DNA of 64,000 nucleotides from a bacterium (GTDB lineage: Bacteria > Zhuqueibacterota > Zhuqueibacteria > Residuimicrobiales > Krinioviventaceae): positions 2,912,001 through 2,976,000 of the forward strand of contig CAXXMD010000003.1 of assembly GCA_963675755.2 (NCBI GenBank), given 5' to 3'. Shown piece after piece: positions 8,806 through 63,921 of this stretch; within the stretch, counting starts at the first letter, position 1, and every line of letters begins with the position of its first letter. The position numbers and the translations under genes were made by a program. Below the pieces are notes generated by a model, which had not been told where the DNA came from, ran no database searches, and was given only the letters and a program-made list of their open reading frames with translations.

Positions 8806-8907
8806 TTTTTTTGTTTTCACGTCTTTTTGTTCTATAAGATAATATTGATTTTGAGATTAGCCTAAAAATCTGTAAATTCTTGTTTTATGTGCAGAGATTA
8901 AAATAAT

Positions 8908-11351: not shown

Positions 11352-11367
11352 GATCAGGAGATTTTAA

Positions 11368-12465: not shown

Positions 12466-12489
12466 TGTAATATTTCTCAGGAGGAAAAT

Positions 12490-20763: not shown

Positions 20764-20769
20764 GCATTT

Positions 20770-35907: not shown

Positions 35908-35910
35908 ATA

Positions 35911-41073: not shown

Positions 41074-43230
41074 ATGTCTGTATTTAACTTGATACATCTT
41101 TTGGGATTTGGATTCGGTGCAACGCTCACCATCATCATTATTGTACTGACGATGCAAAAAACACCAAAGTTCTATGATGATTATTTGCTGGGTATAGTAT
41201 TAAGTATGTGCTTGTTGTGGCTTGGTGGTAATTTTATCGCACTTTTGGGTGGATTTTTATTCGGTAGTGTATTGATGGTAGAGATAAATGCTCTGCTTTT
41301 GATTTCGTATCTGGGTTTATTATGTATACCGTCTGCATTGATACATGGATTAACCGGTATACTGCTTCGGGTAAAAGACAATTTACCTTCTTTTTCCAAA
41401 TTATACCAGGTGATCTTTGTTCTGGTTGTGTATGCACCCGTTGTGGTATTTATTGTACTGGCACTTCAATTTTATCTGAATCCTTATCTGAGGCTGCAGC
41501 TTGATGATGTATTAAGGGTTCCGTTTTACTTGTGGGTCTTATTTTCGTTGGTAATTGCAGTTATAATATGTGAAAATCTTGCACGTAGTCATCCTATAAA
41601 ATCTGACCGATATTTTTACAGAGACCTTTCAATCTCTCTTGCCGCACTGGGAATTGGAATCATTGTTGTTTACATCATTCCTTCCTATCGTATTTCATAT
41701 GTTGGCAGATATTTAAATATGACCATGCGCATCTCTCCATCATATCCTCTCGCAATTATGGCATATTATGTTTACCGTTACAATTTTTATCGTTTGGTAA
41801 TCAAGCCCAGTCTTGTCTATTCTATTATTTATGGTACAGTGATGGCCATTTATTTGCTCGGAATCAGAAGATTGGGAGAATATTTAAAACAGTATCCTGA
41901 AGTGAATTCCGAATTCATTGAAGGCATTCTTTTAATTGCCCTTGTATTCGCGTTTCAGCCATTTCGGCAATTGATACAGAATCGCCTAGACAGGATTTTC
42001 TTTAGAGACCGGCATTTTTATCAACAGGTATTGCGCGAACTGTCTGATGCTATTATTGGTATTGTAGATCTTGAAAAACTGTTGACAACCATTAGTGACT
42101 CTTTGTCAAAAGCGTTTAAATCCAGGTCTATTACCATTGTTGTTTTTCAATACAAGGACAAAAAACCTGAAATATATAAAACCGTAGGGCATCAGGATTT
42201 TAACGACTTTTTCGGACTTGTACGTGCATTTATGTCCACACGGAAAATGCGTCTCAGACAACAAATTAAGGATATGCGGGTTGTCAGAGAATTAGAAGTA
42301 AACAATCTTGAACTGGCTGTACCGGTTTTTTATCAAAAAGAGATTATGGGAATGATATGTTTGGAGGAAAAACAAACAGGCATACCCTATTCTGAAAATG
42401 AAATAGATATGCTGCAAACTTTTGCAAATCAGATAGGACTTGCAGTAGAAAATGCCCGGCTGGTGCAGGAACGGTTAAACCTTGAAGCCAGGGTATATCA
42501 GGCAGAAAAATTAAATTCATTGGGACAGTTGGCAACTACCATGTCGCATGAAATTAAAAATCCATTATCTTCAATAAACAGCATCATTCAGGTGCTTCAC
42601 GAAAGTGCACAAGGTGAGGAGCAAAAAGATCTTGAAATTGTTTTGAACGAGATACAGCGGTTAAACAATATTTTGAAAAAATTATTAACATTTTCAAAAC
42701 CAACTGACGGTACATTAGACAGGGTTTCTTTGCGAGAAATGGTACAGGATGTTATTTCTTTATTGAAATTTCAAGCGAATAAATACAATATTTCAATCAA
42801 AGTAAACGATTTCCCTGATCATGCTTTTATATATGCCAATAATCAGTCTGTCCGTGAAGTTATATTTAATCTGGTATTAAACGCTATGCAGTCCATTGAT
42901 AATGAGGGGCATATTGAATTGGAACTGGAAGCGTTGGAAAACGTAAAACCGTTGAGAAAAATCTCCAAACGAGTTGATATATCTGATGTTAAAAAATGGT
43001 ATTGTTTGACAGTTTTGGATGATGGCCCCGGAATAACCAAAGCAAATTTACGACACATTTTTGATCCTTTTTTTACAACCAAAAGTTCTGGAAGTGGATT
43101 AGGACTTTCCATTGTTAAAAAGAATGTAGAAGATTTTGGTGGATTTATACAGGTGAAAAGTCAGATGAAAAAAGGAACGGCATTTTGTGTCTATTTCCCC
43201 GTACATGAACAAGAGTTGCAAAATGGATGA
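41074..43230 (+). CDS. Multi-TM GAF-domain sensor histidine kinase (PrsK-like architecture)
   Basis: About 8-9 TM segments, GAF-like region ending ANQIGLAVENARL, SHEIKNPL, DDGPG, GSGLGL. Confidence 0.9.
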   Translation: MSVFNLIHLLGFGFGATLTIIIIVLTMQKTPKFYDDYLLGIVLSMCLLWLGGNFIALLGGFLFGSVLMVEINALLLISYLGLLCIPSALIHGLTGILLRVKDNLPSFSKLYQVIFVLVVYAPVVVFIVLALQFYLNPYLRLQLDDVLRVPFYLWVLFSLVIAVIICENLARSHPIKSDRYFYRDLSISLAALGIGIIVVYIIPSYRISYVGRYLNMTMRISPSYPLAIMAYYVYRYNFYRLVIKPSLVYSIIYGTVMAIYLLGIRRLGEYLKQYPEVNSEFIEGILLIALVFAFQPFRQLIQNRLDRIFFRDRHFYQQVLRELSDAIIGIVDLEKLLTTISDSLSKAFKSRSITIVVFQYKDKKPEIYKTVGHQDFNDFFGLVRAFMSTRKMRLRQQIKDMRVVRELEVNNLELAVPVFYQKEIMGMICLEEKQTGIPYSENEIDMLQTFANQIGLAVENARLVQERLNLEARVYQAEKLNSLGQLATTMSHEIKNPLSSINSIIQVLHESAQGEEQKDLEIVLNEIQRLNNILKKLLTFSKPTDGTLDRVSLREMVQDVISLLKFQANKYNISIKVNDFPDHAFIYANNQSVREVIFNLVLNAMQSIDNEGHIELELEALENVKPLRKISKRVDISDVKKWYCLTVLDDGPGITKANLRHIFDPFFTTKSSGSGLGLSIVKKNVEDFGGFIQVKSQMKKGTAFCVYFPVHEQELQNG

Positions 43231-44629
43231 TAAATTGATAGAAAAAATTTTAATTGTAGACGATGAACCCACAGCACGCTATGGAATTCGTAAAGCTCTG
43301 GCAAAAGCGGGTTATGAACTGAGTGAAGCAGGTAATGGCAAAGAGGCACTGGAAAGCATTAAGGAGAATCTGCCGGATGTGGTTCTGAGTGATATATACA
43401 TGCCGGAAATGGATGGCCTTGAATTGTTACGGACAGTACAAAAACTAGAGTTTGAAGAAGATAAAAGACCTTTGATAATCATGCTAACAGCGTTTGGTTC
43501 TGAGAAACTGGCTGTTGAAGCTATGAAATCCGGAGCTTATAATTATCTGTCCAAGCCATTCAATATTGACGAACTGCGTTTAACCATTGAAAAAGCTCTT
43601 GATAAAATCCGGCTGGGCCGGGAAAATGTTTTATTGAAAAAACAACTGGACCAGCACAAGAAAACCGCAATTGTGGGCAAGAGTCCGCAGATATCTAATA
43701 TCATAAAACTGGTAGACAAAGTTGCCCCAACTGATGTCACCGTGTTGTTGACAGGAGAGAGCGGCACGGGAAAAGAACTTGCAGCCAGAACCATTCACAA
43801 TACCAGTCTTAGGCACGACGGTCCCTTTGTTACTATGAATTGTGCCGCTATTCCCAAAGATCTTGTGGAAAGTGAATTGTTCGGACATGAAAAGGGTGCG
43901 TTTACAGGTGCTTCTAATCAACGTGAAGGTAAATTCGAAATAGCAAATAATGGTACTTTATTTCTTGATGAAGTCGCAGATATGAGTCTGGAAACCCAGG
44001 CTAAAATATTACGAATTCTTGAGGAAAAATCTTTTTCCAGATTAGGCGGGAAAAAGATCATCCATACGGATGTCAGGCTCATTAGTGCAACCAATAAGGA
44101 CTTGCAAACAGAGATAGCAGCCGGTCGGTTTCGGGAAGATCTTTTTTACCGGATAAAAGTTGTCGAGATCCAGTTACCTCCATTAATTCAGCGAACAGGT
44201 GATATTGCACTGCTTGCGGATCATTTTGTAAAGTTGTATGCGGTTAAACATAATAAAGATGTTTCCGTTATTGATACAAAAGCTATGCAGATGCTATTAA
44301 ATTACAATTGGCCGGGAAATGTAAGACAATTGATGCACGTCATTGAACAAAGTATTGTTCTCTCTGAAGGTAAAGTTTTATTGCCCGATGTTTTACCTCC
44401 CGAGCTTTATATTGACAATACATTAAATGTTTTAAAACTTGATGGAAACGAGTCTTTTTCAGAAGCCAAAGAACGGTTTGTTCAGCAGTTTGAAAAAGAT
44501 ATCATTCAAAAAGCATTGGTCAAAGCCAATGGGAATGTAAGCCAGGCGGCCAGAGAATTGAAAATGAAGAGGCAGTTTTTACAACAAAAGATAAAAAGTC
44601 TGGATTTGAACGTGCAGGATTATAAATAA
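43223..44629 (+). CDS. Sigma54-dependent response regulator (NtrC family)
   Basis: ILIVDDE receiver, GESGTGKE, GAFTGA, FLDE, Fis-type HTH. Confidence 0.95.
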   Translation: MDDKLIEKILIVDDEPTARYGIRKALAKAGYELSEAGNGKEALESIKENLPDVVLSDIYMPEMDGLELLRTVQKLEFEEDKRPLIIMLTAFGSEKLAVEAMKSGAYNYLSKPFNIDELRLTIEKALDKIRLGRENVLLKKQLDQHKKTAIVGKSPQISNIIKLVDKVAPTDVTVLLTGESGTGKELAARTIHNTSLRHDGPFVTMNCAAIPKDLVESELFGHEKGAFTGASNQREGKFEIANNGTLFLDEVADMSLETQAKILRILEEKSFSRLGGKKIIHTDVRLISATNKDLQTEIAAGRFREDLFYRIKVVEIQLPPLIQRTGDIALLADHFVKLYAVKHNKDVSVIDTKAMQMLLNYNWPGNVRQLMHVIEQSIVLSEGKVLLPDVLPPELYIDNTLNVLKLDGNESFSEAKERFVQQFEKDIIQKALVKANGNVSQAARELKMKRQFLQQKIKSLDLNVQDYK

Positions 44630-44660
44630 AAAAACCCGCTATTAAGCGGGTTTTTTTATT
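44625..44660. terminator. Bidirectional intrinsic terminator between convergent genes
   Basis: AATAAAAAAACCCGCT-ATTA-AGCGGGTTTTTTTATT perfect inverted repeat. Confidence 0.88.
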
Positions 44661-44665
44661 ATATA

Positions 44666-46048
44666 CTAATTAACCCTGTTGAAAACAAAGGGCAAGTTAA
44701 CTGTTATAGAGCCTTCCCTGATGGGCGGGAACTTTAATCGTCTTACAATATTCATCAACTCTCTTACAAAATCCTGATTATCAATTGATGATTCCAGAAT
44801 TTGAATGTTGGAAACACTACCATTGGCTTCAATGGTTACATCAAAACTCACTTTACCTCTCAAATCAGGATTGGTGCGCAGGTACTTGTTATATGTATAC
44901 ATAACACGACCCTGTTGAGAATTAATGATTGACATAACAGATTCGGATGTTCTTTGCGCTCTTGCTTCCTGAGAACCTCTCATGCGTTGGGGCTGCTGAA
45001 TGTTGACTTTGCCCTGTTTTTTCAGGTCAACGGTTTCAACGCCTTCCACTTCAGAGAGCAGATCATCAACACCGCCAGAAAGTCCAAAAGCCATCAGTTC
45101 ATCAATTCCGTCACCGTCTCCGGTACCACCGCCATCTCCGGTTCCATTGCCTTTACCTATTTTATTGCTCTTGGTCAAAGGTTTGCTACCAATGAGCTGA
45201 TCAAGTTCCTGAACAAAACCCTGTTCAATGAGAAAATCAGCCGCAGAACTTGAACTGCCGGAACTACCCGTACCGCCAATAAGTCCCAACAGACCTTGTG
45301 CGTTAACCGGTTTGGGAGCGGGTTTGTCTGATCCGCCACTGCCGCCTGGTTTGGGTTGTTCCTGCTGAGATTCCTGTTCCTGCGTTGTTTCTTCTTCAGC
45401 TTCACCTTCTCCGGAGCTTGTTGTTGCAACCATTTCGGTTTCTGGTGGCTGAGTTGGTTTCTTGATCATGAATCTTGCAAATCGTTCCGGAACCGTGGTT
45501 ACATCGGGTGGTTCCTCTGGTGGAAGTTCATATCCTTTTAGCGAAAAACCAATTATAATTTCAATACTGAAAAGGATAAGGAACAAAGATTTATATAATA
45601 AATCTTTGGTAAAAGTTTTGCCAATTGCCTTGTTCCAGGTGTAAAGAGGAAGCCCTTTAAGGGTTTCCGGCTGGTGGCCATTATAATTAAAAAAGATATC
45701 TGTATCTGATATTCTGAGAGAACCTGATCTGCCGTGTGTAAATTCTAAATTGTAAAAATTACCTTTTTGTGGTAAAAGGTTGTGTACAAACAGATCATTA
45801 AAAGTAACTTTGGAGCCTTTGAATTCAATTTCACCAGTCATTGCAGGTGAAATTTTCATACTGCAAGTGTTTTTCTTACATTCAATCAGAACATGCTTTT
45901 TGGGATAGGCATCGTCATATACAATAATATCATTATCCGGACTACGACCAATTGTAAGCTTGTCTTTTGGCCCAAAATAACGCTGAGTAACGCGACCACC
46001 CTGAACAATTTTGGCTTCTAATATAGAACTATTTCGTTTTATTGTCAT
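44666..46048 (-). CDS. GltG/PglI(AgmX)-like protein: FHA domain, TM, Gly/Pro-rich linker, TonB-C-like domain
   Basis: LTIGRSPDNDI (FHA), single TM, GLLGLIGG linker, YTYNKYLRTNPDLRGKV..FP..LPFVF. Confidence 0.75.
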   Translation of the reverse strand: MTIKRNSSILEAKIVQGGRVTQRYFGPKDKLTIGRSPDNDIIVYDDAYPKKHVLIECKKNTCSMKISPAMTGEIEFKGSKVTFNDLFVHNLLPQKGNFYNLEFTHGRSGSLRISDTDIFFNYNGHQPETLKGLPLYTWNKAIGKTFTKDLLYKSLFLILFSIEIIIGFSLKGYELPPEEPPDVTTVPERFARFMIKKPTQPPETEMVATTSSGEGEAEEETTQEQESQQEQPKPGGSGGSDKPAPKPVNAQGLLGLIGGTGSSGSSSSAADFLIEQGFVQELDQLIGSKPLTKSNKIGKGNGTGDGGGTGDGDGIDELMAFGLSGGVDDLLSEVEGVETVDLKKQGKVNIQQPQRMRGSQEARAQRTSESVMSIINSQQGRVMYTYNKYLRTNPDLRGKVSFDVTIEANGSVSNIQILESSIDNQDFVRELMNIVRRLKFPPIREGSITVNLPFVFNRVN

Positions 46049-46096
46049 GTATAATATCTATTTTATTTATATCGGGTTTCAACGAATTTGGGTTTA

Positions 46097-46609
46097 CTAT
46101 TCTATTTGGTTCACAGCAAGCAGCATATTGTTGTAACCAACACTACCGCAAGTCAACATAATACGTTTGACCAGTTCAAATGTAAGATCACGGTCACCCT
46201 GGATCGTAATATTACCTGTAAAACCGCCCTGGTCAGAAATTGAACCTATACCTTCAGAAATTGTACGAAGTTTGGTCAATTCATCTTTTAGGGGATTGAT
46301 GACGAGTAATTCATCATTCATGATATTTTCAAGTTTTTCTATTGGGCGTCCATCAACCAGTATCCATTCCTGCGTAATTGCTATAACGGATGTGACTTTG
46401 GGTTGCATTTGTGATGTAGATTCAGGCAATTTCAGATCTTTGGTAACGGTCATGATCTGACCTTCTGCACTGTAGCTCTTTAATAAAAACACCAATAGAA
46501 TGGTAAACATGTCTATCATTGAAGTCAATTTCAAATTGAATGTACCACGCTTGGTCCGTTTAGTACCGGTTGCAAGCAATGGTATTGTTTCATGTTCTTC
46601 TATCTTCAT
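46097..46609 (-). CDS. ExbD/TolR-family protein, AglS-like
   Basis: LTSMIDMFTILLVFLLKSYS, LKLPES, IQGD. Confidence 0.85.
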   Translation of the reverse strand: MKIEEHETIPLLATGTKRTKRGTFNLKLTSMIDMFTILLVFLLKSYSAEGQIMTVTKDLKLPESTSQMQPKVTSVIAITQEWILVDGRPIEKLENIMNDELLVINPLKDELTKLRTISEGIGSISDQGGFTGNITIQGDRDLTFELVKRIMLTCGSVGYNNMLLAVNQIE

Positions 46610-46625
46610 GGTTTTATTCTCTTTC

Positions 46626-47093
46626 TTAGCCGGAAATAGAAATATTGGGAAAACCGGATTCCCTGCATCTGTCCATTACCTGAATAATTATGTGATACAG
46701 GATTGCGTCTTCTGGCGAAATTAATATATCTTCAGAATCCGGGTATTTTTCTTTTATTTGGTTCAACTGTGTGGTTAAACCCTGCCAGTTGAAATCATTA
46801 TCAGTTTTGTCTAATTTTTTAAGATTAAGATCAGGACTGTTGAGTTCAAAACCGGTCTCACTGATCTTTAATATGTTTAAAACCGTACTTTTGGGTTTTT
46901 CTGCTGTTGCAGTCTGACCGGGTTTGTCTAAACTCGGCAAAGACAATTCCATAACGGCAATACGAACAAATACTGCCGTTAACAGCATGAACGGAATCAG
47001 TATCAAAAAGATGTTCATTACAGCCGTCAGGTTTAATTCTGTTTCTTCTGCGTGTCCTTTAAGACGACTGCCCATGGATTGTTTTAAATTCAT
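46626..47093 (-). CDS. ExbD/TolR-family protein, AglQ-like
   Basis: ELNLTAVMNIFLILIPFMLLTAVF, YHIIIQVMD, FPNISIS. Confidence 0.85.
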   Translation of the reverse strand: MNLKQSMGSRLKGHAEETELNLTAVMNIFLILIPFMLLTAVFVRIAVMELSLPSLDKPGQTATAEKPKSTVLNILKISETGFELNSPDLNLKKLDKTDNDFNWQGLTTQLNQIKEKYPDSEDILISPEDAILYHIIIQVMDRCRESGFPNISISG

Positions 47094-47096
47094 ATA

Positions 47097-47717
47097 TTAT
47101 TTCTCCGTTGTCATGAACCTGAACAAACGGGCAACATTTTCATTTATTTCATCGATTAATTCATTGGTTTTTTCCTGAAGATAGGTAAAGCCAATCAAAC
47201 AGGGGATAGCTGAAATAATACCAAAAGCTGTGGTATTCATCGCAATAGCAATACCGGATGTAAGCAATGCGGCTTTGTCTGCTGCATCAGCGTGAGCAAC
47301 CGCGGCAAACGCACTGATTAAACCAAAAATTGTTCCCAACAAACCCAACAGTGTGGAAACGTTTGCAATCATTGCTAAATAGTGGGTACGTTTTTCTAAT
47401 TTGGGTATTTCTACCATTGCTGCAAGTTCCATTGCGTTCTGAATGCTTTTGGGAGAGTTGTTGATTTCATTCAAACCAGCTTTTGCAATGTTTGGAAGTG
47501 CTGCATTAGAGATATTGCAATATTCTATAGCCCGGCTAACATTACCGCTTTTAATCAGTTCTGCAATTTTATTTACAAACAATTCTGAATCGATACGATT
47601 TTTGAATTGTATAAAAATTACACGTTCAATAATGGTAACCAGCCCGAGAAGCAGCGCGAACAAGATTACAAACATAACCGGTCCACCACCCATAAAAAAT
47701 CTAATAATACTGTCCAA
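47097..47717 (-). CDS. MotA/TolQ/ExbB proton-channel protein, AglR-like
   Basis: IIER, ANVSTLLGLLGTIFGLI, GIAIAMNTTAFG; TTG start after AAGGAGG. Confidence 0.92.
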   Translation of the reverse strand: MDSIIRFFMGGGPVMFVILFALLLGLVTIIERVIFIQFKNRIDSELFVNKIAELIKSGNVSRAIEYCNISNAALPNIAKAGLNEINNSPKSIQNAMELAAMVEIPKLEKRTHYLAMIANVSTLLGLLGTIFGLISAFAAVAHADAADKAALLTSGIAIAMNTTAFGIISAIPCLIGFTYLQEKTNELIDEINENVARLFRFMTTEK

Positions 47718-47801
47718 GGAAACCTCCTTAATGTTATTTAGAAGCGAGAAAAATTATCTTGAATAATTTAACAAAAATAGAAAATAATTTCAAATTTATT
47801 A

Positions 47802-48185
47802 CTACCAGGGAATATAATCTTTTCTATCAACTGTAGGATCTGTTGTGATTTTTGTTTGTATACGTCCCCTTTTTTCCACCGGTCGAAAGATTTCTTTAAA
47901 AAATGAATGTTCAATTTGAATATCGGTCAATATCCGGAGTGGAACCTGGCAAAATAAACATGGCTTGCGGTTTTTCCAATTGACCAACGACTTCAATTTT
48001 ATCTATAAACAGTTTAACGTCCGAATCTTCAATTGTGGGGGCACTTTCGTTCATCATATTCTGAGCGTTTTGTGCCTGCAAAGTAGAATCATTAGCAAAT
48101 TCCTGCAGTAAACAATTCATTTGAATTTTTGTGCGAATAACAATACGGGAAGTATTATTAATGTAATTACATTATTGTATTTCAT
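47802..48185 (-). pseudogene. GltF/CglF-like small exported protein, frameshifted in this sequence (assembly error or pseudogene)
   Basis: Signal peptide from ATG 48185, then IDKIEVVGQLEKPQAMFILP and IEHSFFKEIFRPVE spread over three reading-frame segments. Confidence 0.55.
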
Positions 48186-48209
48186 AAACTTTTTTAAAAT
48201 TCTTCATGG

Positions 48210-51124
48210 TTAACCTGCTGTTTCCTGAGCTACATTTAATTCTTCACTGGGTTCGGCTTGAACTTTTTGAGTTTCTAATCCCTCTGTTAGAGATTCAATT
48301 CGTTTTTTACTTTCCGTAACCCAAATATTATCAATACTATTTGCTTCAGCTTGTTCAATATTTCTTCTGTATGTTTCTAGCGCCTGTGTTTTATAGGGTT
48401 CTGCTTTTTCCCGAAGCATATCAACATACATGGTAAGCTGTTCATCATTCAACTCTTCCGGTGGAGGAGACTCTACTCAAATGCTCTGAAAAACTCTTCA
48501 AAAGCCATGCCAATTTTATGAGTTGAGGCGGTGCTCCAGTCAGCTACCTGATACTCTAGTGCACTCTTGTATGCACCCAATACTTTTTGAAGGTTTTTAA
48601 CTTTTAGCTGTAAATTTGTTTTAAGCGGTGGAACCAGTTCAATTTTTTGAAACGGCGTGTAATAAATTTCACCTATCATAAACTGTGCTTGTGCAGCAAA
48701 ATAATTGTCTGCAAACTCACCACTTTTTGTTATGGCTTGAAAGTTTTCAATAGTCTTTTTAAAATATTCTTCTGCCGCAGTAAAATCTTTGACTTTATAG
48801 TTCATATCGCCAATTTTATACAGACATTCTAATAGTTCATCGCCAGGTTCTGGATATGTAGAAATATACCGTTCATAATATGATCTTGCGGAATACCAAT
48901 CTTCAAGTGTTTCATAATTATAAGCAGCATTTCGAATCGCATTTTTGTGATGTTCTGAATCAGAATAATTGTCTGCCAGCAGGATATAATCATTAGCTGC
49001 AAGCGTCCAGTTTTGGGTGCTTTCACGAATACCCGCAGCTTTGTAAAGCGCTTCATCAGCCATTTCAGATTCAGGGAACAGCTTGAAAAATTGTTCCAGG
49101 GCTAATGCTGCTTTATCCGGTTGTTCACCTTGTTGGAACTGGATAGCAGATTCGAATAGCGCTCTTTCCCGAAATTCAGGATTCGAAGAAGTCGTTACAA
49201 TGGATGCCAACAGGTTTGCCGCTTCAAGGGGTTTGCCTTCCTGGTTCAAGGCTTCAGCAATTTTAAAGTTGGATGAAGAAGCCATCATTTCCGCTTTTTG
49301 CAAGTACCGTGTTGAATCAGGAAAAGATTTTACAATATCATCGAACCAGATTTCTGCTTCATGATACAATTCTGCGTCATAGTAACATTGCCCTGCATTC
49401 ATAGCAGAAAGCAATCTGTATGGCCTCTTGTCACCCAGGTCAATGACTTTTTTATAAATTTCTATGGCGGGCAAATAGTATTTCAAAGAGTGCATGATCT
49501 CGCCATATTTCATATAAACCTGATCTAATAAATTGCTTTCAGGGAACATGAGCACAAAATCATTGCTCGAAATCAAAAGATTTTTCTCTACACCTGTATT
49601 GGTGTTAAATGTCAACGTATCCGGTGTATTCAAAAAGTTGGGTATATCTACAGAGCCGCCGGCAGCTGTAGAGTCGTCAAGTAATTGGTAATAACTTAGA
49701 ATTCTATTATAAGCGGCTTGTTCTTTGAATTCCGTTTTTGATAAGGAATCACGTTTTACAACGCTGTAATAAGATTCAGCAGCATTGTAATAATCGTTAA
49801 TTTCATAATAACATTCAGCAAGATAGTAGTTGATCTTGACTGCATCATCAGCAGTAGAGAATTTATCCAAGTATTCTTTGTATTTATCAATCGCAGTTTG
49901 AAAACTATTAATATCTGCCGATTGTTGAGCTTCAGCCTGATAAAAAGTACCCAAATAAACCAGTGATTTTTTTGTTATATCGAGACCGGTATTTTGTACG
50001 GTATCTGCCTGATTAGTTTGCCATTCACTGCCAGGACCTAGATACGTGACCAATTTCTCACGAGTTTTGTTTGCACCTTCTATATCCTCATCCAGTTCAT
50101 AACTTTCGATGATTTTTTGATAGATATTTGGCGCGTCACTATAGTATGGATATATATCAAGAAGCACGTTCAAGATTTCAATGGATTCTGTATAATAGTT
50201 TCGTTCGTGGTATAAGTCATAAATTTTTAAAAGAATGGGGAGTGTATAATCTTTATCTTTGTGATTGATCAGAAAATTATGTGCAGCAGATGGACCACCA
50301 AACTCGGTAAAACAGCTTGAAATATAATATATAGCTTCTGTCCTGAGATCAGCCTTGCTCTTTGTAAACACCTGGGTTTTTGCTTTTTCAATGAGAGAAA
50401 TATCTTCAATGAGGTAGAGGAAGGTACTGATAGCATCGGAATAATTGTTTAAATTATAATATGACCAGCCCAGTTTGTAAAGGCTCATATCAAAATAAGG
50501 ATTACTCCACTCATCCAGCAGTTCTTTGTAATGCGAAATAGCTGTTTTATAATCTCTTTGAGAAAAATAGTATTCACCAATTCTAAAGTGTGCTTCAAAG
50601 GCAATGGGTGATTCCGGATGATTGGCTACAATACTTTCGAAATAATCTTTGGCCCGAAGTTTATCACCCTGCTGGAAATAGGAAATTCCTAACTTGTATA
50701 ATACTTTGTCTTTAAACTTGGAAGCAGGAAAATCTGTTAAAAGCCTGTTACAGTATTCTATTGTCTTATTCATGTCCAATTTGGGCAAAGAAGGTTCGGT
50801 AGCAATTTCACCATTATCAAACCTTCCAAGATCCGTTTCGTATTGCTGCATTTGAAGCTGATAATTGATCTGAGATCTTTGTGTGTACAATTCGGCAAGC
50901 TGAAACATGATTGTTGACGCAAACGGACCTTGCGGGTATTTTTTTAACAAAGTCTCATGCTCAGAAATAATCGCATCCAGTTTACCAATATCTTCACCCG
51001 TATCCTGGATGATTGCATTTACATAGGCACTTTCCTGACCAATTACGGTGACTGACTGGCCAAGAAAGAGTAAACCCACTATGAATGCAACAAGGCAGTT
51101 TTTATATAAATTTGATTTTTTCAT
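48210..51124 (-). CDS. Large exported TPR protein, GltD/AgmU-like; frameshift near 48475 separates the last ~87 aa
   Basis: Signal peptide and many TPRs; ..WSTASTHKIGMAFEEF continues in another frame as ESPPPEELNDEQLTMYVDMLREKAEPY. Confidence 0.7.
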
Positions 51125-51149
51125 AATTTTTTTAACATTATTAATGATA

Positions 51150-52544
51150 CTAGTTATGTATTTCTGTGCGTTTCAAAAATAATGCCCTTGATTTACCATA
51201 TTCGGCAAAAGCTCTCCAATCCTGTCTTTCTTCTTTCACTTTGATCATATTTTTCATAATGTCCATTTCAGCCAGCATGCTTTGGAAATTTTGACGTTCG
51301 GTCTGGATTTGTCTCATCAATTCATTACGAGTTTGATTTATCTCGTGTTTTTCCAGCTGTAAATAATCTGGCGCTTCAGTATCAGGCGTTAATTGGATCA
51401 GGTTGAGCAATTTTGTTTCAAGTACCAGTAAATCCATTTTAATTGATTCCAGTCTTCTTTCCTGAATATGAATACTGGATTCTACTTCGTTGACAATCAT
51501 GGGTACTAGCTCACGCTTTGGTAAGCTATTTACCAAATATTCGTATACTTTGAGGGCTTCATCGTATAACCCTAATTTTAAATAACATCTTCCCAATAAA
51601 AAGAAACCTTCCTGGGTATTTTCATCTTCATTCGGCATGGATACCAGGTCAGTTAATGGATCTACCGCAAGTTGATATTGTTTCATCTTGGTTGCGGCCC
51701 ATCCTGCAGCTAACAACGCACTTTTATAATGGTTATGTTTTGAAGATACTGCTCTGAAATTACCCAAAGCTCTCTGGTAATAACCCAATTCATAATAGAT
51801 ATAACCGAGTGTCAGGTAGGTTTCATCAACAATATTTCTAAAATCATCATTAACGATAGGTATACGAAGAATTGAATTGAGTGAATTAACAGCTTCTCGA
51901 ACCTGACGCAAGCGCAAGTATGCAAGTGCTGCTGTATATTGTGCATATGGTGAATAGGGATTTCCCTTGTCAATCTCGGTCAATATTTCAATGGCTTTGT
52001 CATAATCGAACAGGTTGTAATAAGAAAGACCCGCGTAATATCTTGAAGCATCAAGAATGTCTCTTGAAGGATTACCTTTGGTGATGACTTTATAGAATTC
52101 GATACATTTTTCCAGATTGCCTTTATCATATTCTATTCGTTGAAGTCCTAGTAAAGCTCTGGGTAAATGAGGACTGGCAATATATTTTTTTACAAGGAAT
52201 TTAAAAATCTTTTTCGATCCATCTAGCAACCCAATTTCAAATAGACAATCACCAAGTGTAAAAACAACCTGATCGATCTTGGAGTAACTGGGGTAAAAGT
52301 CCATAAGGATAATCAGATTCCGTGAGCTTTCCCAATAATCTCCATCCATAAACATTTTTTCAGCCTCAAGATAAAGCTTTTCAGCCGCACGCTCTAGCTC
52401 TTCTGTTTCTGCTCTTTGCAGTCTGGCTTCTTTATCTTCCGGTTGAGAATATACAGCGGTTGGGAGTAAAGTCCCCCCAAGCATAATTGCTATAATTGCT
52501 GCAATCCACATTTTGGACTGTTTGGATTTATCTAAAAGGGTCAT
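51150..52544 (-). CDS. Exported TPR protein, GltC-like, with C-terminal coiled coil
   Basis: Signal peptide, TPRs, LTLGYIYYELG..ALLAAGWA pattern; inside the Agl-Glt-like cluster. Confidence 0.6.
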   Translation of the reverse strand: MTLLDKSKQSKMWIAAIIAIMLGGTLLPTAVYSQPEDKEARLQRAETEELERAAEKLYLEAEKMFMDGDYWESSRNLIILMDFYPSYSKIDQVVFTLGDCLFEIGLLDGSKKIFKFLVKKYIASPHLPRALLGLQRIEYDKGNLEKCIEFYKVITKGNPSRDILDASRYYAGLSYYNLFDYDKAIEILTEIDKGNPYSPYAQYTAALAYLRLRQVREAVNSLNSILRIPIVNDDFRNIVDETYLTLGYIYYELGYYQRALGNFRAVSSKHNHYKSALLAAGWAATKMKQYQLAVDPLTDLVSMPNEDENTQEGFFLLGRCYLKLGLYDEALKVYEYLVNSLPKRELVPMIVNEVESSIHIQERRLESIKMDLLVLETKLLNLIQLTPDTEAPDYLQLEKHEINQTRNELMRQIQTERQNFQSMLAEMDIMKNMIKVKEERQDWRAFAEYGKSRALFLKRTEIHN

Positions 52545-52663
52545 TCGATTCTTGCTTCAAGTTGTTTGTTATATAAATATATGCCTATTTTTGCAGCACT
52601 ATTTAGAGTTATAATGTATGAATATACTCACATTAAACATCATATACGTAAATATTTTTTAAT

Positions 52664-53695
52664 TTATTCAGTTTTAGGTTTCTTTTCTTCTTCAAGTTGT
52701 TTCCGAAGTTCTTCAAGATCTTTGACAACTTCTTTACGTTTTTGTTGTATTTGGTCCAATTCTTTACGCTCTTCCTGGCGCTGGTTATCCATTTCTCTTT
52801 CTTTGCGGGTTTTACCTGCAAAGATATTGGTACGGTATGTCACTCCAAACATGACTTTCCAATCTGCATAATCTTTCATGAATGGGTTGGCAGCCAGGTT
52901 TTCATTTTCCGGGGTGAATCTGCCCAATTCAAAATCAGCAGCCAGATCACAAATCAAATGCCAGGGACCAACAAATCTAAATCCCTGTGTGAAGCGAGTA
53001 AAGTTTTGACTTGGAGTAATATCAGCATTATTGATAAACATTTCACCTGTAAATTCAGAATAGAACAGAGATGATCTTACCGGGAATTTGAATCCGAGAC
53101 CGCCTATGATCTGATCTTTTTCTGAGGAAAAGTAGGCATCAGACCAGTTGTTATCCAGATAGCCCAGGTTGATTGACAACTTCATTGGAAATGTTTTGAT
53201 ATAATCTTTGAAATCCAGCGTAGACAACAACATTAAACCCCAACCCATAGCATCATCCGTATAGGGTTCAAATTGTACATTGTGATTCAAAGCTGTTGGA
53301 AACTTGGCAAAACCAGCAAGTCCCAATTGTACCATTGAACCGTATCGGGGTAGGTGATATTTTACATACAAGCGAGAATCACCAATAGGACCCCAGGTGT
53401 GCTTTTGATCATCCTGGTAAGGGGTCAGTTGTGCAAATACTTCAAATTGTTCTGAAAGGCTAGTTGTAATACCCAAATGTAAAGCATGATCTTCACTGAA
53501 ACTTTCGTTATCTCCGGCACCGTAAAATGAATACACAGGATTAATTGCCAAAACACCCGGATGTATGGTTTCAGCTTCAATAATTCTGAACAAACCTTTG
53601 CCACCAAAATAAGAAACCTGTGCAAAGCTATTCATTGAAAAAAGTATAATGAAAATAAAAAATATTGATCCAATATTTGTCAATTTCCTGTTCAT
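52664..53695 (-). CDS. Putative outer-membrane beta-barrel with a charged C-terminal coiled coil
   Basis: Signal peptide (SFA-Q), GKGLF..AET start, GDSRLYVKY-type strands, E/K-rich tail. Confidence 0.55.
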   Translation of the reverse strand: MNRKLTNIGSIFFIFIILFSMNSFAQVSYFGGKGLFRIIEAETIHPGVLAINPVYSFYGAGDNESFSEDHALHLGITTSLSEQFEVFAQLTPYQDDQKHTWGPIGDSRLYVKYHLPRYGSMVQLGLAGFAKFPTALNHNVQFEPYTDDAMGWGLMLLSTLDFKDYIKTFPMKLSINLGYLDNNWSDAYFSSEKDQIIGGLGFKFPVRSSLFYSEFTGEMFINNADITPSQNFTRFTQGFRFVGPWHLICDLAADFELGRFTPENENLAANPFMKDYADWKVMFGVTYRTNIFAGKTRKEREMDNQRQEERKELDQIQQKRKEVVKDLEELRKQLEEEKKPKTE

Positions 53696-53822
53696 TCTCT
53701 ATTCTCCCTTGTTCGGAGTTAAATATAATAAATGTATTGTAATACTTGACTAAACATATAATTTAAAACTTGTATTGCAAAATTCCAATAATAAATTTAG
53801 TTTTGGGATTTTTTCAATAACC

Positions 53823-55979
53823 CTACAACATCCCAAACTTTTTGCGCAAAAACCATTCCAATGAAAGCAAAGTGATTATAGTTATTAGAATTATTTTATG
53901 GTTCCAAACATCTACTTGAAAAGTGTTTGTGATTTCCCGAGTTTGACCATCAATTTCAGAAAAAAGTAAATTCAAAGAATCAGGATGTATAAATTTCCCA
54001 CCGCTTTTTGCTGCTAACTCTTTTAAAACAGAGACTTGGAGCCTTGTGTTTGCCAGCTCAGAGTTATAATTGCCCATGCTGAAAAGGGCTGTATTGTGCT
54101 TGTCCTTAGGCAGGGAGGGTGTTTCAAGATTTAGCTGGTAATCACCAGACTCGTCCAGATAGATAGTTTTTGTAAATTGATTTTCTTTGTTAGGGTCCAA
54201 TTGCAGGTACTCTGTTTCATTTTCGTGATCAAGCTGTAATGTGATTTCATTTTTGTAATTGCTAATTGCATCTGGGTTATTGATGCTTACATGAATATGA
54301 ACGGGATCACCAAAGTTGTAATTCTTTTTATCTGTAGATATTTTTAACCAGTCAGTCTCTTTTTTTACTTCAAGCCACTGTAGAGAATTCAGAATAAAGT
54401 TCTCGTAAACCTTGTCATCATTTTCTACCCCTCTCATCATCAAGTCCCAACGCCATGTATCATATGCCAGTAACGCTTCAGATTTGTGATTGTTTTCATT
54501 TCTCACAAGAACCAAAGGTAGTGCTTGTTGTTCTAAAGCACCTGTTCCTGCCTGCGCCAAAACCTGTGTTCCCGGCCACATATTGGTTATATATACATCT
54601 GTAAATGCAGGTGGAAGCTTTTGCCAGTTGTAATAATTATCACCGGATGCATTTGTGCTCAGCATTATGGGGTGGCTTTTACCATTAGCAGTTAACGTTG
54701 GAGAAATTTGAGTGAATTTTGTTTTGTTAACAGGTGATTTAAAAGGCAGAAATTCTTGCAGGCTACTCAACTGATTAAAGTCTGTATTGGGGCCAGAAAT
54801 AAAAAAGATCGGTTTTTTATCCGCTTTCAAGCGTTCAGATATTTGATTGATAATTGATTTATTACTGTTTGTAACAGGATAATTAAATAAAATAAACAGA
54901 TCTGTTTCTTGTAAAAGTGTAGGCACATCTATTTCAGTTTTATAAAAACTGCCATCTTTTTTTTGAACAAGTTTGGTTATTTGATAACGATCCGTATTTT
55001 GAATATATCTGTTAATAAAAGAAATATCCGTGGCTGGGCCACCGGCAACAAGTGTTACATTTTGTTTGGCTTTTAATACTTCATGATAAATTGTATATGT
55101 ATTATTTTGGCTTAGAAATTCATCTGACTGCTGAGGAATTGATACGGTTACTTTATGCTGTCCTTCTTTTTCCGGAGTGTAATTCATTTCAAGATTAACT
55201 TCGGAAGGAGAGGAGGGAATGGTTAAGGTTTGGGTCTGTTGAGATTTTCCATCAATGTACAAGGATACGGGAACTACCAGATTGCTAAAACCTGTAGTGC
55301 GGATTGTAATAATAAATTCTGCAGGTTCATTTACATATGTAAAGGGATTGGTTTGAACATAGTCGATGCTGATATCCCGAATGGGATTCGCAGAACCAAT
55401 ACCCACCGGATATACAGGGATTGATGATTCTGTAGCAAATCGGGCAGGACTGCCACCTTGATTATAATTTCCATCGGTATAGATAACAATTGCTGAGAGA
55501 TTATTATTTTCCTGATCCTGATTGATGTAATTCAATGCTTTGCTGATATTGGTGACATCGCCTGTGAAATCTTGAATGATTTCTTTATTCTCTTTAACAG
55601 GTTGAACATCACCAGAGAATGTATAATATTTTAACTTGAACTTGTTTAATAATTGATCAAATACAGGATCATTTGCAGCTTTTTCTAAAAGACTGACACG
55701 GTCACCACTGGCATCTTTTATTGACATGCTTTTGCTGTTATCTATTGCAATGCCAATAACCGGTTCAAGCTGTTTTTTGGTATTGTAATAAAGTTGCCCC
55801 TGAAATAGTACAATGAATAACAAGAAAAAAGCGATCCCGCGTAAAAATGCAAGGATAAGTTTAGAGTAAAGTGGTACAGCCGGAACTGTTTTGCGATAAA
55901 CAAATAAAGTAAATATTATTGAGATAATAAGGGTAATGATAAAAATTTCGATGTGTTGTATAAACAAGCTGTAATGCAT
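53823..55979 (-). CDS. Membrane-anchored vWA-domain protein (BatA/GATase-like associated family)
   Basis: IDNSKSM (MIDAS DxSxS), YTDG, TWRW, ELAAKSGG, EWFLRKKFG. Confidence 0.75.
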   Translation of the reverse strand: MHYSLFIQHIEIFIITLIISIIFTLFVYRKTVPAVPLYSKLILAFLRGIAFFLLFIVLFQGQLYYNTKKQLEPVIGIAIDNSKSMSIKDASGDRVSLLEKAANDPVFDQLLNKFKLKYYTFSGDVQPVKENKEIIQDFTGDVTNISKALNYINQDQENNNLSAIVIYTDGNYNQGGSPARFATESSIPVYPVGIGSANPIRDISIDYVQTNPFTYVNEPAEFIITIRTTGFSNLVVPVSLYIDGKSQQTQTLTIPSSPSEVNLEMNYTPEKEGQHKVTVSIPQQSDEFLSQNNTYTIYHEVLKAKQNVTLVAGGPATDISFINRYIQNTDRYQITKLVQKKDGSFYKTEIDVPTLLQETDLFILFNYPVTNSNKSIINQISERLKADKKPIFFISGPNTDFNQLSSLQEFLPFKSPVNKTKFTQISPTLTANGKSHPIMLSTNASGDNYYNWQKLPPAFTDVYITNMWPGTQVLAQAGTGALEQQALPLVLVRNENNHKSEALLAYDTWRWDLMMRGVENDDKVYENFILNSLQWLEVKKETDWLKISTDKKNYNFGDPVHIHVSINNPDAISNYKNEITLQLDHENETEYLQLDPNKENQFTKTIYLDESGDYQLNLETPSLPKDKHNTALFSMGNYNSELANTRLQVSVLKELAAKSGGKFIHPDSLNLLFSEIDGQTREITNTFQVDVWNHKIILITIITLLSLEWFLRKKFGML

Positions 55980-63589: not shown

Positions 63590-63862
63590 TTATTTAGTTT
63601 TGGGAAGAATGACCTCTACATCTGTATGGGGACGAGGAATTACATGCACCGAAACCAGTTCGCCAACTTTTTCAGCAGCTGCAGCACCAGCGTCAGTTGC
63701 TGCTTTAACAGCGCCAACATCGCCGCGAACGATTACAGTCATCAATCCACTTCCAACTCTTTCTGTGCCGAGCAACTTTACATTTGCCGCTTTAACCATT
63801 GCATCTGCGGCTTCTATTGCAGGAATGAAACCTCTAGTTTCAACAAGTCCTAATGCTTCCAT
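63590..63862 (-). CDS. Bacterial microcompartment hexameric shell protein (BMC-H, EutM/PduA/CcmK-like)
   Basis: [37 protein letters not shown]; ATG after GGAGG. Confidence 0.95.
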
Positions 63863-63921
63863 TGTGGGGTAACCCTCCAAAATTTTTCTGCTGTTTTACA
63901 TTGATTATGTATATATTTTAC

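Follow-up and report, generated by a model that had tools for sequence, protein, structure and literature searches.

Introduction

A compact cluster of eight genes raises the question of whether its TolQ/TolR-type motor serves an ordinary energy-transduction pathway, or instead powers an envelope-spanning machine related to those of Myxococcus xanthus. The host of the cluster is an uncultivated KSB1-type bacterium. The second answer is probably correct, with the locus encoding, in one operon, a member of the Glt/Nfs ‘core complex’ family: an envelope-spanning machine driven by proton-motive force whose output would be mechanical work at the surface. A preliminary description had already proposed that a non-myxobacterial genome encodes an Agl-Glt-like envelope motor in one locus, and a GltG match, a Geobacter-like gene order and a relative of GltF/CglF all speak for this.

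Gene order and termination

The cluster lies wholly on the minus strand of the window (the whole 64,000-nucleotide stretch analysed), its eight genes running from 53695 to 44666 in the order barrel, TPR protein, large TPR protein, small secreted protein, TolQ-like subunit, two TolR/ExbD-like subunits, and a protein with FHA, transmembrane (TM) and TonB C-terminal (TonB-CTD) parts. This co-oriented order, as first described, is recovered by the open reading frame (ORF) list and Pfam matches at the following coordinates:

52664-53695, minus strand: predicted outer-membrane 12-stranded beta-barrel, 343 aa, with signal peptide and C-terminal helix (ORF, AF2, Foldseek)
51150-52544, minus strand: secreted TPR protein, 464 aa, with long C-terminal helical tail, in the GltC position (GltC/GltE-like; Pfam TPR families)
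48473-51124, minus strand: large TPR protein, N-terminal 883 aa, in the GltD position, frame broken at the 3' end (ORF, Pfam)
48210-48452, minus strand: C-terminal tail of the large TPR protein, about 80-87 aa, in another frame (translation, comparison with the related locus L001)
47802-48207, minus strand: small secreted GltF/CglF-like protein, in pieces (133 aa when intact; three-frame translation, intact L001 copy P0070, hhalign)
47097-47717, minus strand: TolQ/ExbB/MotA-family proton-channel subunit, 206 aa, in the AglR position (PF01618, E 2.4e-28)
46626-47093, minus strand: TolR/ExbD paralogue 1, 155 aa, in the AglQ position, with Asn for the TM Asp (PF02472, E 1.3e-18)
46097-46609, minus strand: TolR/ExbD paralogue 2, 170 aa, in the AglS position, with the TM Asp kept (PF02472, E 1.6e-11)
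44666-46048, minus strand: GltG-type transducer, 460 aa (NF033760, NF033768, AF2, Foldseek)
44625-44660, no strand assigned: palindromic bidirectional intrinsic terminator (sequence, folding)

The terminator is a perfect palindrome, common to the cluster and a convergent NtrC-type regulator gene. Its folding energy is -20.8 kcal/mol on one strand (z -7.2) and -20.7 kcal/mol on the other (z -6.7), and none of 200 shuffles is as stable. A consensus terminator scan did not pick up the palindrome at 44625-44660; its symmetry and strong folding on either strand uphold the bidirectional terminator originally placed at the cluster end.

Conservation and integrity of the cluster

Related loci were drawn from KSB1-type MAGs, among them L001, a relative 88.5% identical to the window. 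Every gene is present in order in 20 of 33 loci, a further seven are cut by contig ends, and the remaining six lack only the three motor genes. That 20 loci share the full ordered set makes the cluster more than a chance arrangement, and its retention in relatives, suggested earlier as a check, is evident. Codon comparison indicates that the cluster genes are under purifying selection between the window and L001, with 34 synonymous and two non-synonymous changed codons in the TolQ gene, and 76 and seven, respectively, in the GltG-like gene.

The window copy differs from L001 by five insertions spanning 553 nt (48477-47925): 2 nt at ~48477, which introduces a premature stop into the large TPR gene, and 1 nt each at 48189, 48126, 48113 and 47925. 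Together they disrupt two genes, those of the large TPR protein and the small protein, and leave the other six intact. In L001 the large TPR gene is continuous (4931-7840), its tail joined to the upstream part, and rejoining is indeed required to reach ~970 aa here, as the tail lies in another frame.

It is possible, though unlikely, that this copy is a decaying, non-functional remnant, with real frameshifts and the machine lost in this strain. Such a loss would fit the confinement of the damage to two genes within so short an interval, as no further uncompensated frame-breaking indels relative to L001 occur in coding sequence, either within the cluster or in the neighbour upstream of it, and relatives carry unbroken copies (the small gene is uninterrupted in 30/30, one with a masked stretch; all 27 large TPR homologues that escape truncation at a contig end are intact, at 951-1003 aa). 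Against decay, besides the six intact genes, mismatches to L001 concentrate at third codon positions, at 9/4/32 across the three positions in the small gene and 8/6/23 in the large TPR tail, a pattern of purifying selection, and the conserved core of the small protein has the same residue sequence in both. Given these third-position mismatches and the identical core, the broken genes were either selected until very recently or carry local assembly errors, so the frameshifts would reflect either assembly error or very recent inactivation. Further out, at 35-41 kb of the window, compensating indel pairs relative to L001 are also observed.

The GltG-type transducer

The assignment of the locus to the Glt core-complex family draws on its last gene. 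The 460-aa product comprises a cytoplasmic FHA-like domain (residues 10-122), a TM helix (138-170), a disordered, Gly/Pro-rich periplasmic linker with conserved motifs, and a TonB-CTD-like AgmX/PglI domain (346-458). Residues 20-457 align with positions 214-646 of 650 in the NCBIfam model NF033760 (gliding_GltG; E 1.7e-27), at 96 bits, far short of the 650-bit equivalog cut-off, and in this alignment the protein lacks the first of the FHA domains that Myxococcus GltG has. The AgmX/PglI C-terminal domain model NF033768 scores 76.7 bits, above its cut-off of 40, and the Pfam match to FHA is weak. In the AF2 model the N-terminal beta-sandwich and the C-terminal domain are both predicted with confidence, and Foldseek returned FHA domains (3unm, 6hc0, 3gqs, 4a0e) and TonB-CTDs (6sly, 2gsk, 7zc8, 1u07) at E 2e-3 to 2e-2; of these, 3gqs, 7zc8 and 6sly are named for GltG/GltJ in the accessible text of Cambillau & Mignot 2025 (PMC11761067). 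P0061, P0064 and P0069, three proteins from myxobacteria that have the same length and architecture, match the KSB1 protein at E 1e-18 to 1e-23, with 24% identity across 98% of the query, and themselves score 162-194 bits against positions 223-649 of the GltG model. The suggestion that this FHA-TM-TonB-C protein is GltG-like is thus strengthened by a model match over ~430 residues, a passed AgmX/PglI cut-off, and the modelled FHA and TonB-CTD folds.

Motor subunits

One TolQ-like and two different TolR/ExbD-like genes had been recognised, and PF01618 is matched once and PF02472 twice. The TolQ-like subunit scores 76 bits with TIGR02796 (tolQ) and 47 with exbB, each under its cut-off, and its closest PDB matches are TolQ chains (E 1.1e-10). 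Its gene starts with TTG behind a GGAGG Shine-Dalgarno sequence, the TTG being kept in 25 of 26 loci. Paralogue 1, for which TolR is the best NCBIfam model, has Asn at the aligned TM Asp position in all 28 sequences, and paralogue 2 has Asp in 28/28. In the accessible part of a review (PMC9389320), AglQ and AglS both carry the Asp that paralogue 1 lacks here, a point against the Agl-Glt reading.

These motor genes match the MotA_ExbB and ExbD families, as would be expected of ordinary TonB-ExbB-ExbD transduction that has a second ExbD paralogue, uses TPR proteins as accessories and serves TonB-dependent outer-membrane uptake. The transducer likewise matches Pfam TonB_C (E 2.4e-6) and TIGR01352 tonB_Cterm (35.7 bits vs a cut-off of 27.1), and its PDB sequence matches are TonB C-terminal domains. 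Such a system is nonetheless very unlikely: the GltG model extends through the FHA-like and TM regions, the motor subunit favours tolQ over exbB, no 22-stranded plugged transporter is present at the locus, where the barrel is modelled with 12 strands, and the gene order is that of a Glt core complex with a GltF/CglF-like protein.

Barrel and TPR proteins

The barrel has no family assignment in Pfam or NCBIfam. Its AF2 model, from a 25-sequence alignment (pLDDT 81.2, pTM 0.70), predicts a 12-stranded outer-membrane barrel followed by a charged, coiled-coil-like helix of ~40 residues (297-338). A novel coiled-coil-tailed barrel standing in for GltA/B/H had been proposed; the strands, the tail helix and the lack of a family hold, but no tie to GltA/B/H can be drawn, as the barrel could not be related to any family. 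Foldseek matches in the PDB include FapF (5o68; TMt ~0.6, E ~4e-6), NanC (2wjq; TMt 0.71), Tsx, intimin/invasin beta-domains and porins. FapF, a Pseudomonas functional-amyloid secretion channel, has a coiled coil. The two would share a 12-stranded outer-membrane barrel and a periplasmic coiled-coil-like helix, which is C-terminal in the KSB1 barrel, and are 12-14% identical. In the model the resemblance is one of fold, common to NanC, Tsx and intimin, and gives no evidence of homology.

Size, position and weak, non-specific HMM matches hint at a relation of the TPR proteins to GltD/GltC/GltE. In the 464-aa family, 22 of 26 members give weak matches to NCBIfam gliding_GltC (best E 2.1e-11), none of them near the 450-bit cut-off and amid many generic TPR matches, and the gene precedes that of the large TPR protein, like GltC homologues in Geobacter and Fibrobacter. 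None of 25 large TPR homologues matches a Glt-named NCBIfam model, GltD and GltE models possibly being absent from that collection, and their best matches are generic (YbgF/CpoB and BamD, each 25/25). Neither TPR protein has a lipobox cysteine, and a third, GltE-like TPR gene is missing from the cluster, in line with the initial observation.

A divergent Tol-Pal-like system for outer-membrane integrity or constriction, in which the FHA-TonB-C protein replaces TolA and the TPR proteins replace CpoB/YbgF, could explain the top matches to TolQ (solved structures and NCBIfam) and TolR (paralogue 1) and the large TPR protein's 112.8 bits against YbgF (summed over four stretches; cut-off 90.1), but is highly improbable, as the YbgF matches come from repetition of a generic TPR unit, the transducer belongs to the GltG type and not to the TolA type, and TolA, TolB and Pal were not found in 14 ORFs (40243-55979), nor any such domain elsewhere in the window. 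TolQ-likeness does not discriminate, since the Agl proteins are TolQR-like themselves (Luciano 2011, PMC3169522, in excerpt).

The small GltF/CglF-like protein

The small protein has an invariant core in a 27-homologue alignment (K-I..L-E-x-P-Q-A..I-D-D..S-F..F-R..W). Used as an exhaustive HMM query, the 27-sequence profile yielded 115 representatives at E <= 1e-3, and a profile of the distant tail of these matches led to proteins of Archangium, Myxococcus, Pyxidicoccus and Vitiosangium, which match NCBIfam gliding_CglF over their full length (E 1.6e-9 to 1.9e-7); 16 of 50 distant-tail members match this model. CglF is GltF (PMC4488436, in excerpt). Since the CglF model is matched directly by only one of 27 KSB1 proteins, non-significantly (E 0.084), the link to GltF is transitive. 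Aligned by hhalign, the KSB1 and myxobacterial CglF-like families match at 98.6% (E 8.9e-16, 48 columns), making the small ORF a remote GltF/CglF relative, as had been surmised. A GltF-like protein in KSB1 contrasts with the earlier view that GltF is confined to Myxococcales and Bdellovibrionales. GltG-like P0069 and CglF-like P0327 are each listed on an Archangium gephyra contig of 11,964,604 bp.

Proposed mechanism

The TolQR/ExbBD structures and a published AlphaFold model for the Myxococcus machine suggest, by analogy, that the two TolR-like proteins would pair as a heterodimer, with the protonatable Asp in only one of them, enclosed by five TolQ-like subunits. Proton flow would move this stator, which would hold the GltG-type protein by its TM helix and the FHA-like domain beside it, passing force through the long periplasmic linker and TonB-like C-terminal domain to the ~970-aa TPR scaffold in the GltD position. 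The small GltF-like protein may link the TonB-like domain with the 464-aa TPR protein in the GltC position, itself placed beneath the barrel and possibly in helix-helix contact with the barrel tail. The machine would perform its mechanical work at the cell surface or outer membrane; by analogy with Agl-Glt gliding and Agl-Nfs spore-coat assembly, this work is most likely the moving or depositing of a surface polymer or adhesin. The 5:2 TolQ-TolR and ExbB-ExbD stators (8odt, 5sv0) belong to the same MotA/TolQ/ExbB and ExbD/TolR families, but the axle proposed here is a heterodimer of divergent paralogues with Asp in only one, and its partner is GltG-type rather than TolA or TonB.

Comparison with Glt and Nfs systems

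Reduced core versions in other phyla, to which the preliminary description alluded, are already published. A single-locus ‘core complex’ in non-deltaproteobacteria, combining aglR-aglQ-aglS (Group B) with gltC, gltD, gltE and gltG, was described for Gammaproteobacteria, Betaproteobacteria, Geobacter and Fibrobacter succinogenes, the last in the FCB group, and in the accessible text function is shown for none outside the myxobacteria (Luciano 2011, PMC3169522). In Geobacter, Gura_3077..3070 encode GltC, GltD, GltE, an unlisted gene (3074), AglR, AglQ, AglS and a 484-aa GltG (Luciano 2011 Table S3, PMC3169522). The KSB1 locus likewise has a mid-size and a ~1000-aa TPR protein upstream, one further gene before the motor, one TolQ-like and two TolR-like subunits, and then the 460-aa GltG-type protein. 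It differs in its KSB1-type phylum, the absence of a GltE-like third TPR gene, the helix-tailed 12-stranded barrel gene leading the operon, and the Asn for Asp in one TolR paralogue. The gene between GltD and motor is GltF/CglF-like here, whereas the extra gene elsewhere has no Myxococcales homologue according to the accessible part of PMC3169522.

Like the M. xanthus Agl-Glt and Agl-Nfs machines (PMC11761067, PMC3858216, both in excerpt), the locus combines a motor of TolQR type, in which the two TolR-like subunits differ, with an FHA-TM-TonB-CTD transducer of the GltG/NfsG type, TPR scaffolds and outer-membrane barrels. Common to them too is a small secreted protein of GltF/CglF type, comprising strand and C-terminal helix regions. 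Equivalents of GltA/B/H/K, GltI, GltJ, CglB and AglZ are missing from the KSB1 locus, as are the first FHA domain of the GltG-like protein and a lipobox cysteine in the TPR proteins. Where M. xanthus has three porins, and its genes in three separate clusters, the KSB1 locus has one barrel of an unrelated family, and a single operon.

Gene organisation and relation to the core complex

The preliminary description had identified eight co-oriented genes as a compact Agl-Glt-like envelope motor cluster, and their number and order are borne out by direct reading of the ORFs, with domains assigned by Pfam and NCBIfam. The genes run head to tail, with intergenic gaps of 3 to 119 nt, and encode, in order, a predicted outer-membrane barrel (343 aa), two TPR proteins (464 aa, and about 970 aa once a break in the reading frame is repaired), a small protein, a TolQ-like protein, two TolR/ExbD paralogues and a GltG-like protein (460 aa). 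TPR repeats make up the 464-aa protein and the 883-aa product of the broken gene in both Pfam and NCBIfam, while the barrel and small genes matched no family in either, even at E-values of up to 10. The cluster and its boundaries are as follows:

53695 to 44666, minus strand: the eight-gene cluster
upstream of the cluster, same strand: a gene for a 718-aa membrane protein, then tsaD
44625-44660, both strands: a perfect palindrome flanked by A7 and T7, the terminator that closes the cluster

That this terminator is bidirectional, as previously proposed, is confirmed by folding, in which one strand reaches -20.8 and the other -20.7 kcal/mol (z close to -7 for both; none of 200 shuffles was as stable), and the convergent gene for an NtrC-type regulator uses the same palindrome. 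Folding was employed because a scan for consensus promoters and terminators, whose counts were close to the shuffle expectation, had missed this obvious palindrome.

Luciano et al. (2011; PMC3169522) describe the Group B genes aglR, aglQ, aglS, gltC, gltD, gltE and gltG as a single-locus ‘core complex’, its function not known, and report it in Gamma- and Betaproteobacteria, Geobacter and Fibrobacter; it carries one extra gene, said there to be without a myxobacterial homologue.

Core-complex genes as they appear in Table S3 of PMC3169522 (locus, length in aa, assignment)
Geobacter
Gura_3077, 629, GltC
Gura_3076, 1108, GltD
Gura_3075, 240, GltE
Gura_3074, not listed
Gura_3073, 211, AglR
Gura_3072, 166, AglQ
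Gura_3071, 166, AglS
Gura_3070, 484, GltG
Fibrobacter
Fisuc_1892, 746, GltC
Fisuc_1893, 1292, GltD
Fisuc_1894, 212, AglR
Fisuc_1896, 164, AglS
Fisuc_1897, 308, GltG

The window shows the same arrangement, with the two TPR genes (464 and ~970 aa), the small gene, the motor genes (TolQ-like, 206 aa; TolR-like, 155 and 170 aa) and the GltG-like gene (460 aa) following one another in a single locus, in the order of Gura_3077-3070 and Fisuc_1892-1897. It differs from the Geobacter core complex in having a barrel gene in front and no GltE. The lack of a GltE lipoprotein had been recognised at the outset and holds, there being two TPR genes only, neither with a lipobox; as Table S3 likewise lists no GltE for the Fibrobacter cluster, the protein is not universal in the core-complex family. 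None of the window ORFs scanned with Pfam or NCBIfam corresponded to the GltA/B/H/K outer-membrane module, the CglB adhesin, GltI/GltJ or AglZ.

The GltG-type transducer

The 460-aa protein aligns with the NCBIfam model gliding_GltG (NF033760) over residues 20-457 and model positions 214-646 of 650 (E 1.7e-27, below the equivalog threshold), and scores 76.7 bits with the AgmX/PglI C-terminal domain model (NF033768), above its cut-off of 40; a TonB C-terminal domain is also assigned by Pfam/NCBIfam. In the AlphaFold2 model (mean pLDDT 64), confidence is high for an N-terminal beta-sandwich (10-122), for the long TM helix (138-170) and for a C-terminal domain (346-458); the linker joining the last two is modelled as disordered. 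Searched as a whole chain against the PDB with Foldseek, at modest E-values of 2e-3 to 2e-2, the model matched the FHA domains of MDC1, Bdellovibrio DgcB, CT664 (3gqs) and YscD, and the TonB C-terminal domains 6sly, 2gsk, 7zc8 and 1u07. The protein first read as FHA-TM-TonB-C is GltG-like on these grounds and, like the core-complex transducer, combines an FHA domain adjoining a TM helix with a long linker and, at the C-terminus, a TonB-like AgmX/PglI domain.

Myxococcus GltG is laid out by Cambillau & Mignot (2025; PMC11761067) as FHA (1-114), FHA (190-329), TMH (330-348), linker and TonB-CTD (544-640), so the window protein corresponds to GltG minus its first FHA domain. The shorter architecture also occurs in myxobacteria, as in a 450-aa protein of Archangium gephyra (P0069; 24% identity over 98% of the query, E 5e-18) and in a second myxobacterial protein (P0061) that reaches 194 bits on the GltG model.

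Conservation and the choice between readings

Related loci were sought by a pattern scan of one genome per species, with an alignment of 18 sequences of the 460-aa protein as query. The 33 retrieved (L001-L033) are labelled KSB1, Calditrichota, ‘uncultured Cytophagia’ or simply bacterium; the set holds no myxobacterial, Geobacter or Fibrobacter loci because this closer alignment was the query. The cluster is conserved in these relatives, in keeping with the preliminary description: all genes are present in the window's order in 20 of the 33, and seven more are cut by contig ends and agree with that order in the genes present. The remaining six (L028-L033) are without the three motor genes, their last gene coming directly after the small gene (e.g. 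L028 3594-10660). The last protein of this variant has only residues 252-458, the periplasmic half, in common with the window protein; its N-terminal part differs, replacing the FHA-like domain, and appears from the alignment to be helical.

Two more familiar systems could be encoded at such a locus, and both are disfavoured, because of the GltG-type transducer, the synteny, and the lack of a TBDT, TolB or Pal. For an ordinary TonB-ExbBD system, the difficulty is that the transducer has an FHA-like N-terminal domain, by model and Foldseek, and that the barrel is 12-stranded, with no TBDT at the locus. An ordinary Tol-Pal system fares no better, none of the 14 window ORFs in and beside the cluster matching TolA, TolB or Pal. 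The observation itself is real, and its main interpretation, an Agl-Glt-like single-locus envelope motor outside the myxobacteria, is supported by the GltG-type transducer and the core-complex gene order. The cluster fits best as a variant of the Glt/Nfs core complex already known, distinguished by its new lineage, a barrel of its own, a component of GltF type and a stator axle in which Asn is paired with Asp.

The motor

The TolQ-like protein (206 aa) matches PF01618 (E 2.4e-28), and scores 76 bits with the TolQ model vs 47 bits with ExbB, both below cut-off. PF02472 is found on the two consecutive genes that follow, encoding proteins of 155 and 170 aa, and one TolQ-like gene is accordingly adjacent to two distinct TolR-like genes, as in the core complex:

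47715-47717, minus strand: start codon of the TolQ-like gene
46626-47093, minus strand: TolR/ExbD paralogue 1
46097-46609, minus strand: TolR/ExbD paralogue 2

The paralogues form separate conserved families (alignments of 28 sequences each), in which one aligned transmembrane position is Asn in 28 of 28 sequences of paralogue 1 and Asp in 28 of 28 of paralogue 2. We take this position to be that of the proton-binding Asp of TolR/ExbD. In Myxococcus, AglQ and AglS both carry the conserved Asp, according to a review (PMC9389320), and the AglQ substitution D28N is reported to abolish function (PMC3858216), whereas KSB1 has Asp in paralogue 2 and Asn in paralogue 1. The KSB1 stator would accordingly have a single site for proton binding and be obligately heterodimeric. 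The absence of the presumed proton-binding Asp from one TolR paralogue throughout the clade is of specialist interest for the way in which the two axle subunits of 5:2 motors are employed.

TTG is the start codon of the TolQ-like gene both in the window and in 25 of 26 related loci, with GGAGG as the Shine-Dalgarno sequence 5-8 nt ahead of it; ATG is used only in L027. A weak start codon is thus conserved on the subunit that is expected in five copies.

The outer-membrane barrel and the TPR proteins

AlphaFold2 modelled the barrel protein from a 25-sequence alignment (pLDDT 81.2, pTM 0.70) as twelve strands within residues 48-290, followed by a helix at 297-338. Foldseek retrieved outer-membrane barrels, among which those ranking highest in target coverage are 12-stranded, namely NanC (TMt 0.71), FapF (~0.6), Tsx and the beta-domains of intimin/invasin. 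A charged helix at the C-terminus is kept in 25 of 25 sequences, and the barrel gene adjoins the gene in the GltC position, whose 464-aa product also ends in a long helical segment. GltC is placed under the GltA/B/H porins in the Myxococcus model (PMC11761067), and the barrel tail may make a helix-helix contact with the 464-aa TPR protein.

The position of the 464-aa gene fits GltC, and the size (951-1003 aa in intact copies), TPR content and position of the large TPR protein fit GltD. The suggested comparison of the TPR ORFs with Glt models gave weak matches to the GltC model NF033756 in 22 of 26 members of the smaller family (best E 2.1e-11; cut-off 450 bits), for which generic TPR models score better; in the larger, none of the 25 homologues matched a Glt-named NCBIfam model. 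With generic TPR models predominating, the two proteins are candidate homologues of GltD and GltC/GltE.

The small GltF/CglF-like protein

The 27 homologues of the small protein combine a signal peptide and a low-complexity stretch with a domain of 72 residues, 18 of them invariant. A word-based profile search gave 188 matches, the best 120 of which were close KSB1 or nameless relatives only, and a protein atlas search (best score 0.88, clusters without names) was uninformative. When 1.84 billion representatives were searched exhaustively by HMM, 115 proteins reached E <= 1e-3, and in the tail of these are secreted proteins of ~100 aa with the core I-x-I-x-G-x-I-x-K-P-Q-A ... S-F. A profile of this tail found 1434 proteins; the names among the best 120 of these, dominated by one myxobacterial group, are Archangium, Myxococcus, Pyxidicoccus and Vitiosangium. 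Six such myxobacterial proteins match the NCBIfam model gliding_CglF at full length (E 1.6e-9 to 1.9e-7; 31-38 bits, below the cut-off of 90), and CglF, equated with GltF by Jakobczak et al. (2015; PMC4488436), is matched by 16 of 50 tail members, any other family being matched by at most two.

The resemblance to GltF proposed in the preliminary description is seen by way of the myxobacterial CglF-like proteins, 25 of which align with the KSB1 family in hhalign at a probability of 98.6% (E 8.9e-16, 48 columns). As just one of the 27 KSB1 proteins matches the CglF model itself (E 0.084), the link is remote and transitive, and the KSB1 protein is probably a distant GltF/CglF relative, not an equivalog. 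The GltF/CglF-type protein is described as restricted to the Myxococcales and Bdellovibrionales in Luciano et al. (PMC3169522); the remote relatives in KSB1 lie beyond those groups and are of specialist interest.

The Myxococcus model has a strand of GltF paired with the TonB-like domain of GltG and the GltF C-terminal helix lodged in GltC (PMC11761067); GltF has also been likened to a TonB box (PMC9389320). Co-folding of residues 58-133 of P0070, the intact small protein of L001, with residues 325-460 of the GltG-like protein (alignments A3 and A5, respectively) scored 0.02 and 0.04 vs a mark of 0.32, without controls, and speaks neither for nor against binding.

Frame interruptions in the window

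The large TPR gene stops at residue 883, its last ~87 residues lying in another frame, and the small gene is spread over several frames. Both are intact in L001 (970 and 133 aa), which is 88.5% identical to the window over 21.4 kb and relative to which the window carries insertions of 2 nt at ~48477 and of 1 nt at 48189, 48126, 48113 and 47925, all five within 553 nt. The count of frame-breaking indels applies to the coding parts of the cluster and of the gene upstream of it, as distinct from compensating pairs further out in the 21-kb alignment; all other indels in those coding parts are multiples of three or compensated within a few bases. Mismatches to L001 at first, second and third codon positions number 9/4/32 in the small gene and 8/6/23 in the TPR tail, and the small protein keeps its conserved core intact despite the frameshifts. 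Elsewhere, the small gene is uninterrupted in 30 of 30 copies (one with a masked stretch), as is the large TPR gene in all 27 copies free of contig ends. Because the third-position bias and the conserved core persist, the breaks are either local assembly errors or very recent.

Implications

No account of such a cluster in KSB1 came up in a literature search, subscription journals aside. What the Glt core complex does outside the myxobacteria has been an open question since 2011, and its study, Luciano et al. (PMC3169522) propose, would help to explain the gliding and spore-coat machines. Eight adjacent genes of this lineage supply all parts of a putative machine, from the stator up to the barrel in the outer membrane; so compact a set, with deep and highly conserved family alignments, lends itself to structure prediction, heterologous expression and cryo-EM. 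The cluster would have little significance if it were only an ordinary extra TonB or Tol system.

A broader reading can be put forward tentatively, and may well prove wrong. The KSB1 cluster would be a minimal, self-contained Glt/Nfs machine that shows the ancestral unit. That unit would already have possessed an outer-membrane barrel of its own and a GltF/CglF-type small protein, which myxobacteria would then not have added late. In the stator, the axle would be obligately heterodimeric and carry just one proton-binding Asp, as an asymmetric form of the 5:2 motor. The motor-less L028-L033, with a coiled-coil N-terminal domain for the FHA-like one, would imply that the periplasmic/outer-membrane module can couple to a stator from another locus, much as the Myxococcus Nfs system borrows AglRQS.

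Neighbouring genes

The wider context of the cluster consists of housekeeping genes, and two loci flank the cluster directly:

41074-44629, plus strand: a GAF histidine kinase and an NtrC-type sigma-54 activator, converging on the cluster with a common terminator
53823-55979, minus strand: the 718-aa protein, with hydrophobic N- and C-terminal segments and weak VWA and Ig-like matches

An NtrC-type regulator neighbours the cluster in 15 of the 33 related loci. A sigma-54 promoter linking the two was considered and rejected, the window containing 27 matches with up to two mismatches vs 34.7 expected, and the 127-nt region upstream of the barrel gene none. The 718-aa protein belongs to a VWFA/GATase1-like family (~700-740 aa) that is widespread in several phyla, and in 14 of the 20 complete loci its gene is found ahead of the barrel gene; it was not detected there in L005, L007, L014, L018, L023 and L025, detection in L007 and L014 being limited by contig ends within ~0.4 kb of the barrel gene. 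Its candidacy as a ninth component or CglB-like VWA protein was dismissed given the widespread family and the six of 20 loci in which it was not detected. Regulator and 718-aa gene are thus frequent neighbours among related loci, not constant ones.

Further genes of the window were recorded in passing:

2833-8805, plus strand: a 1990-aa protein with a C25 (gingipain-type) peptidase domain and propeptide, two ILEI domains, CARDB repeats and a C-terminal FlgD_ig-like domain, within a polysaccharide-biosynthesis gene cluster (4-13464)
19118-22086, plus strand: an anti-sigma-type HATPase_c_2 protein, then two Omp85-family genes, one with a POTRA domain
35002-36912: a MoxR AAA+ gene and a DUF58/VWA gene
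63590-63880, minus strand: a BMC-domain (bacterial microcompartment shell) protein at the window edge
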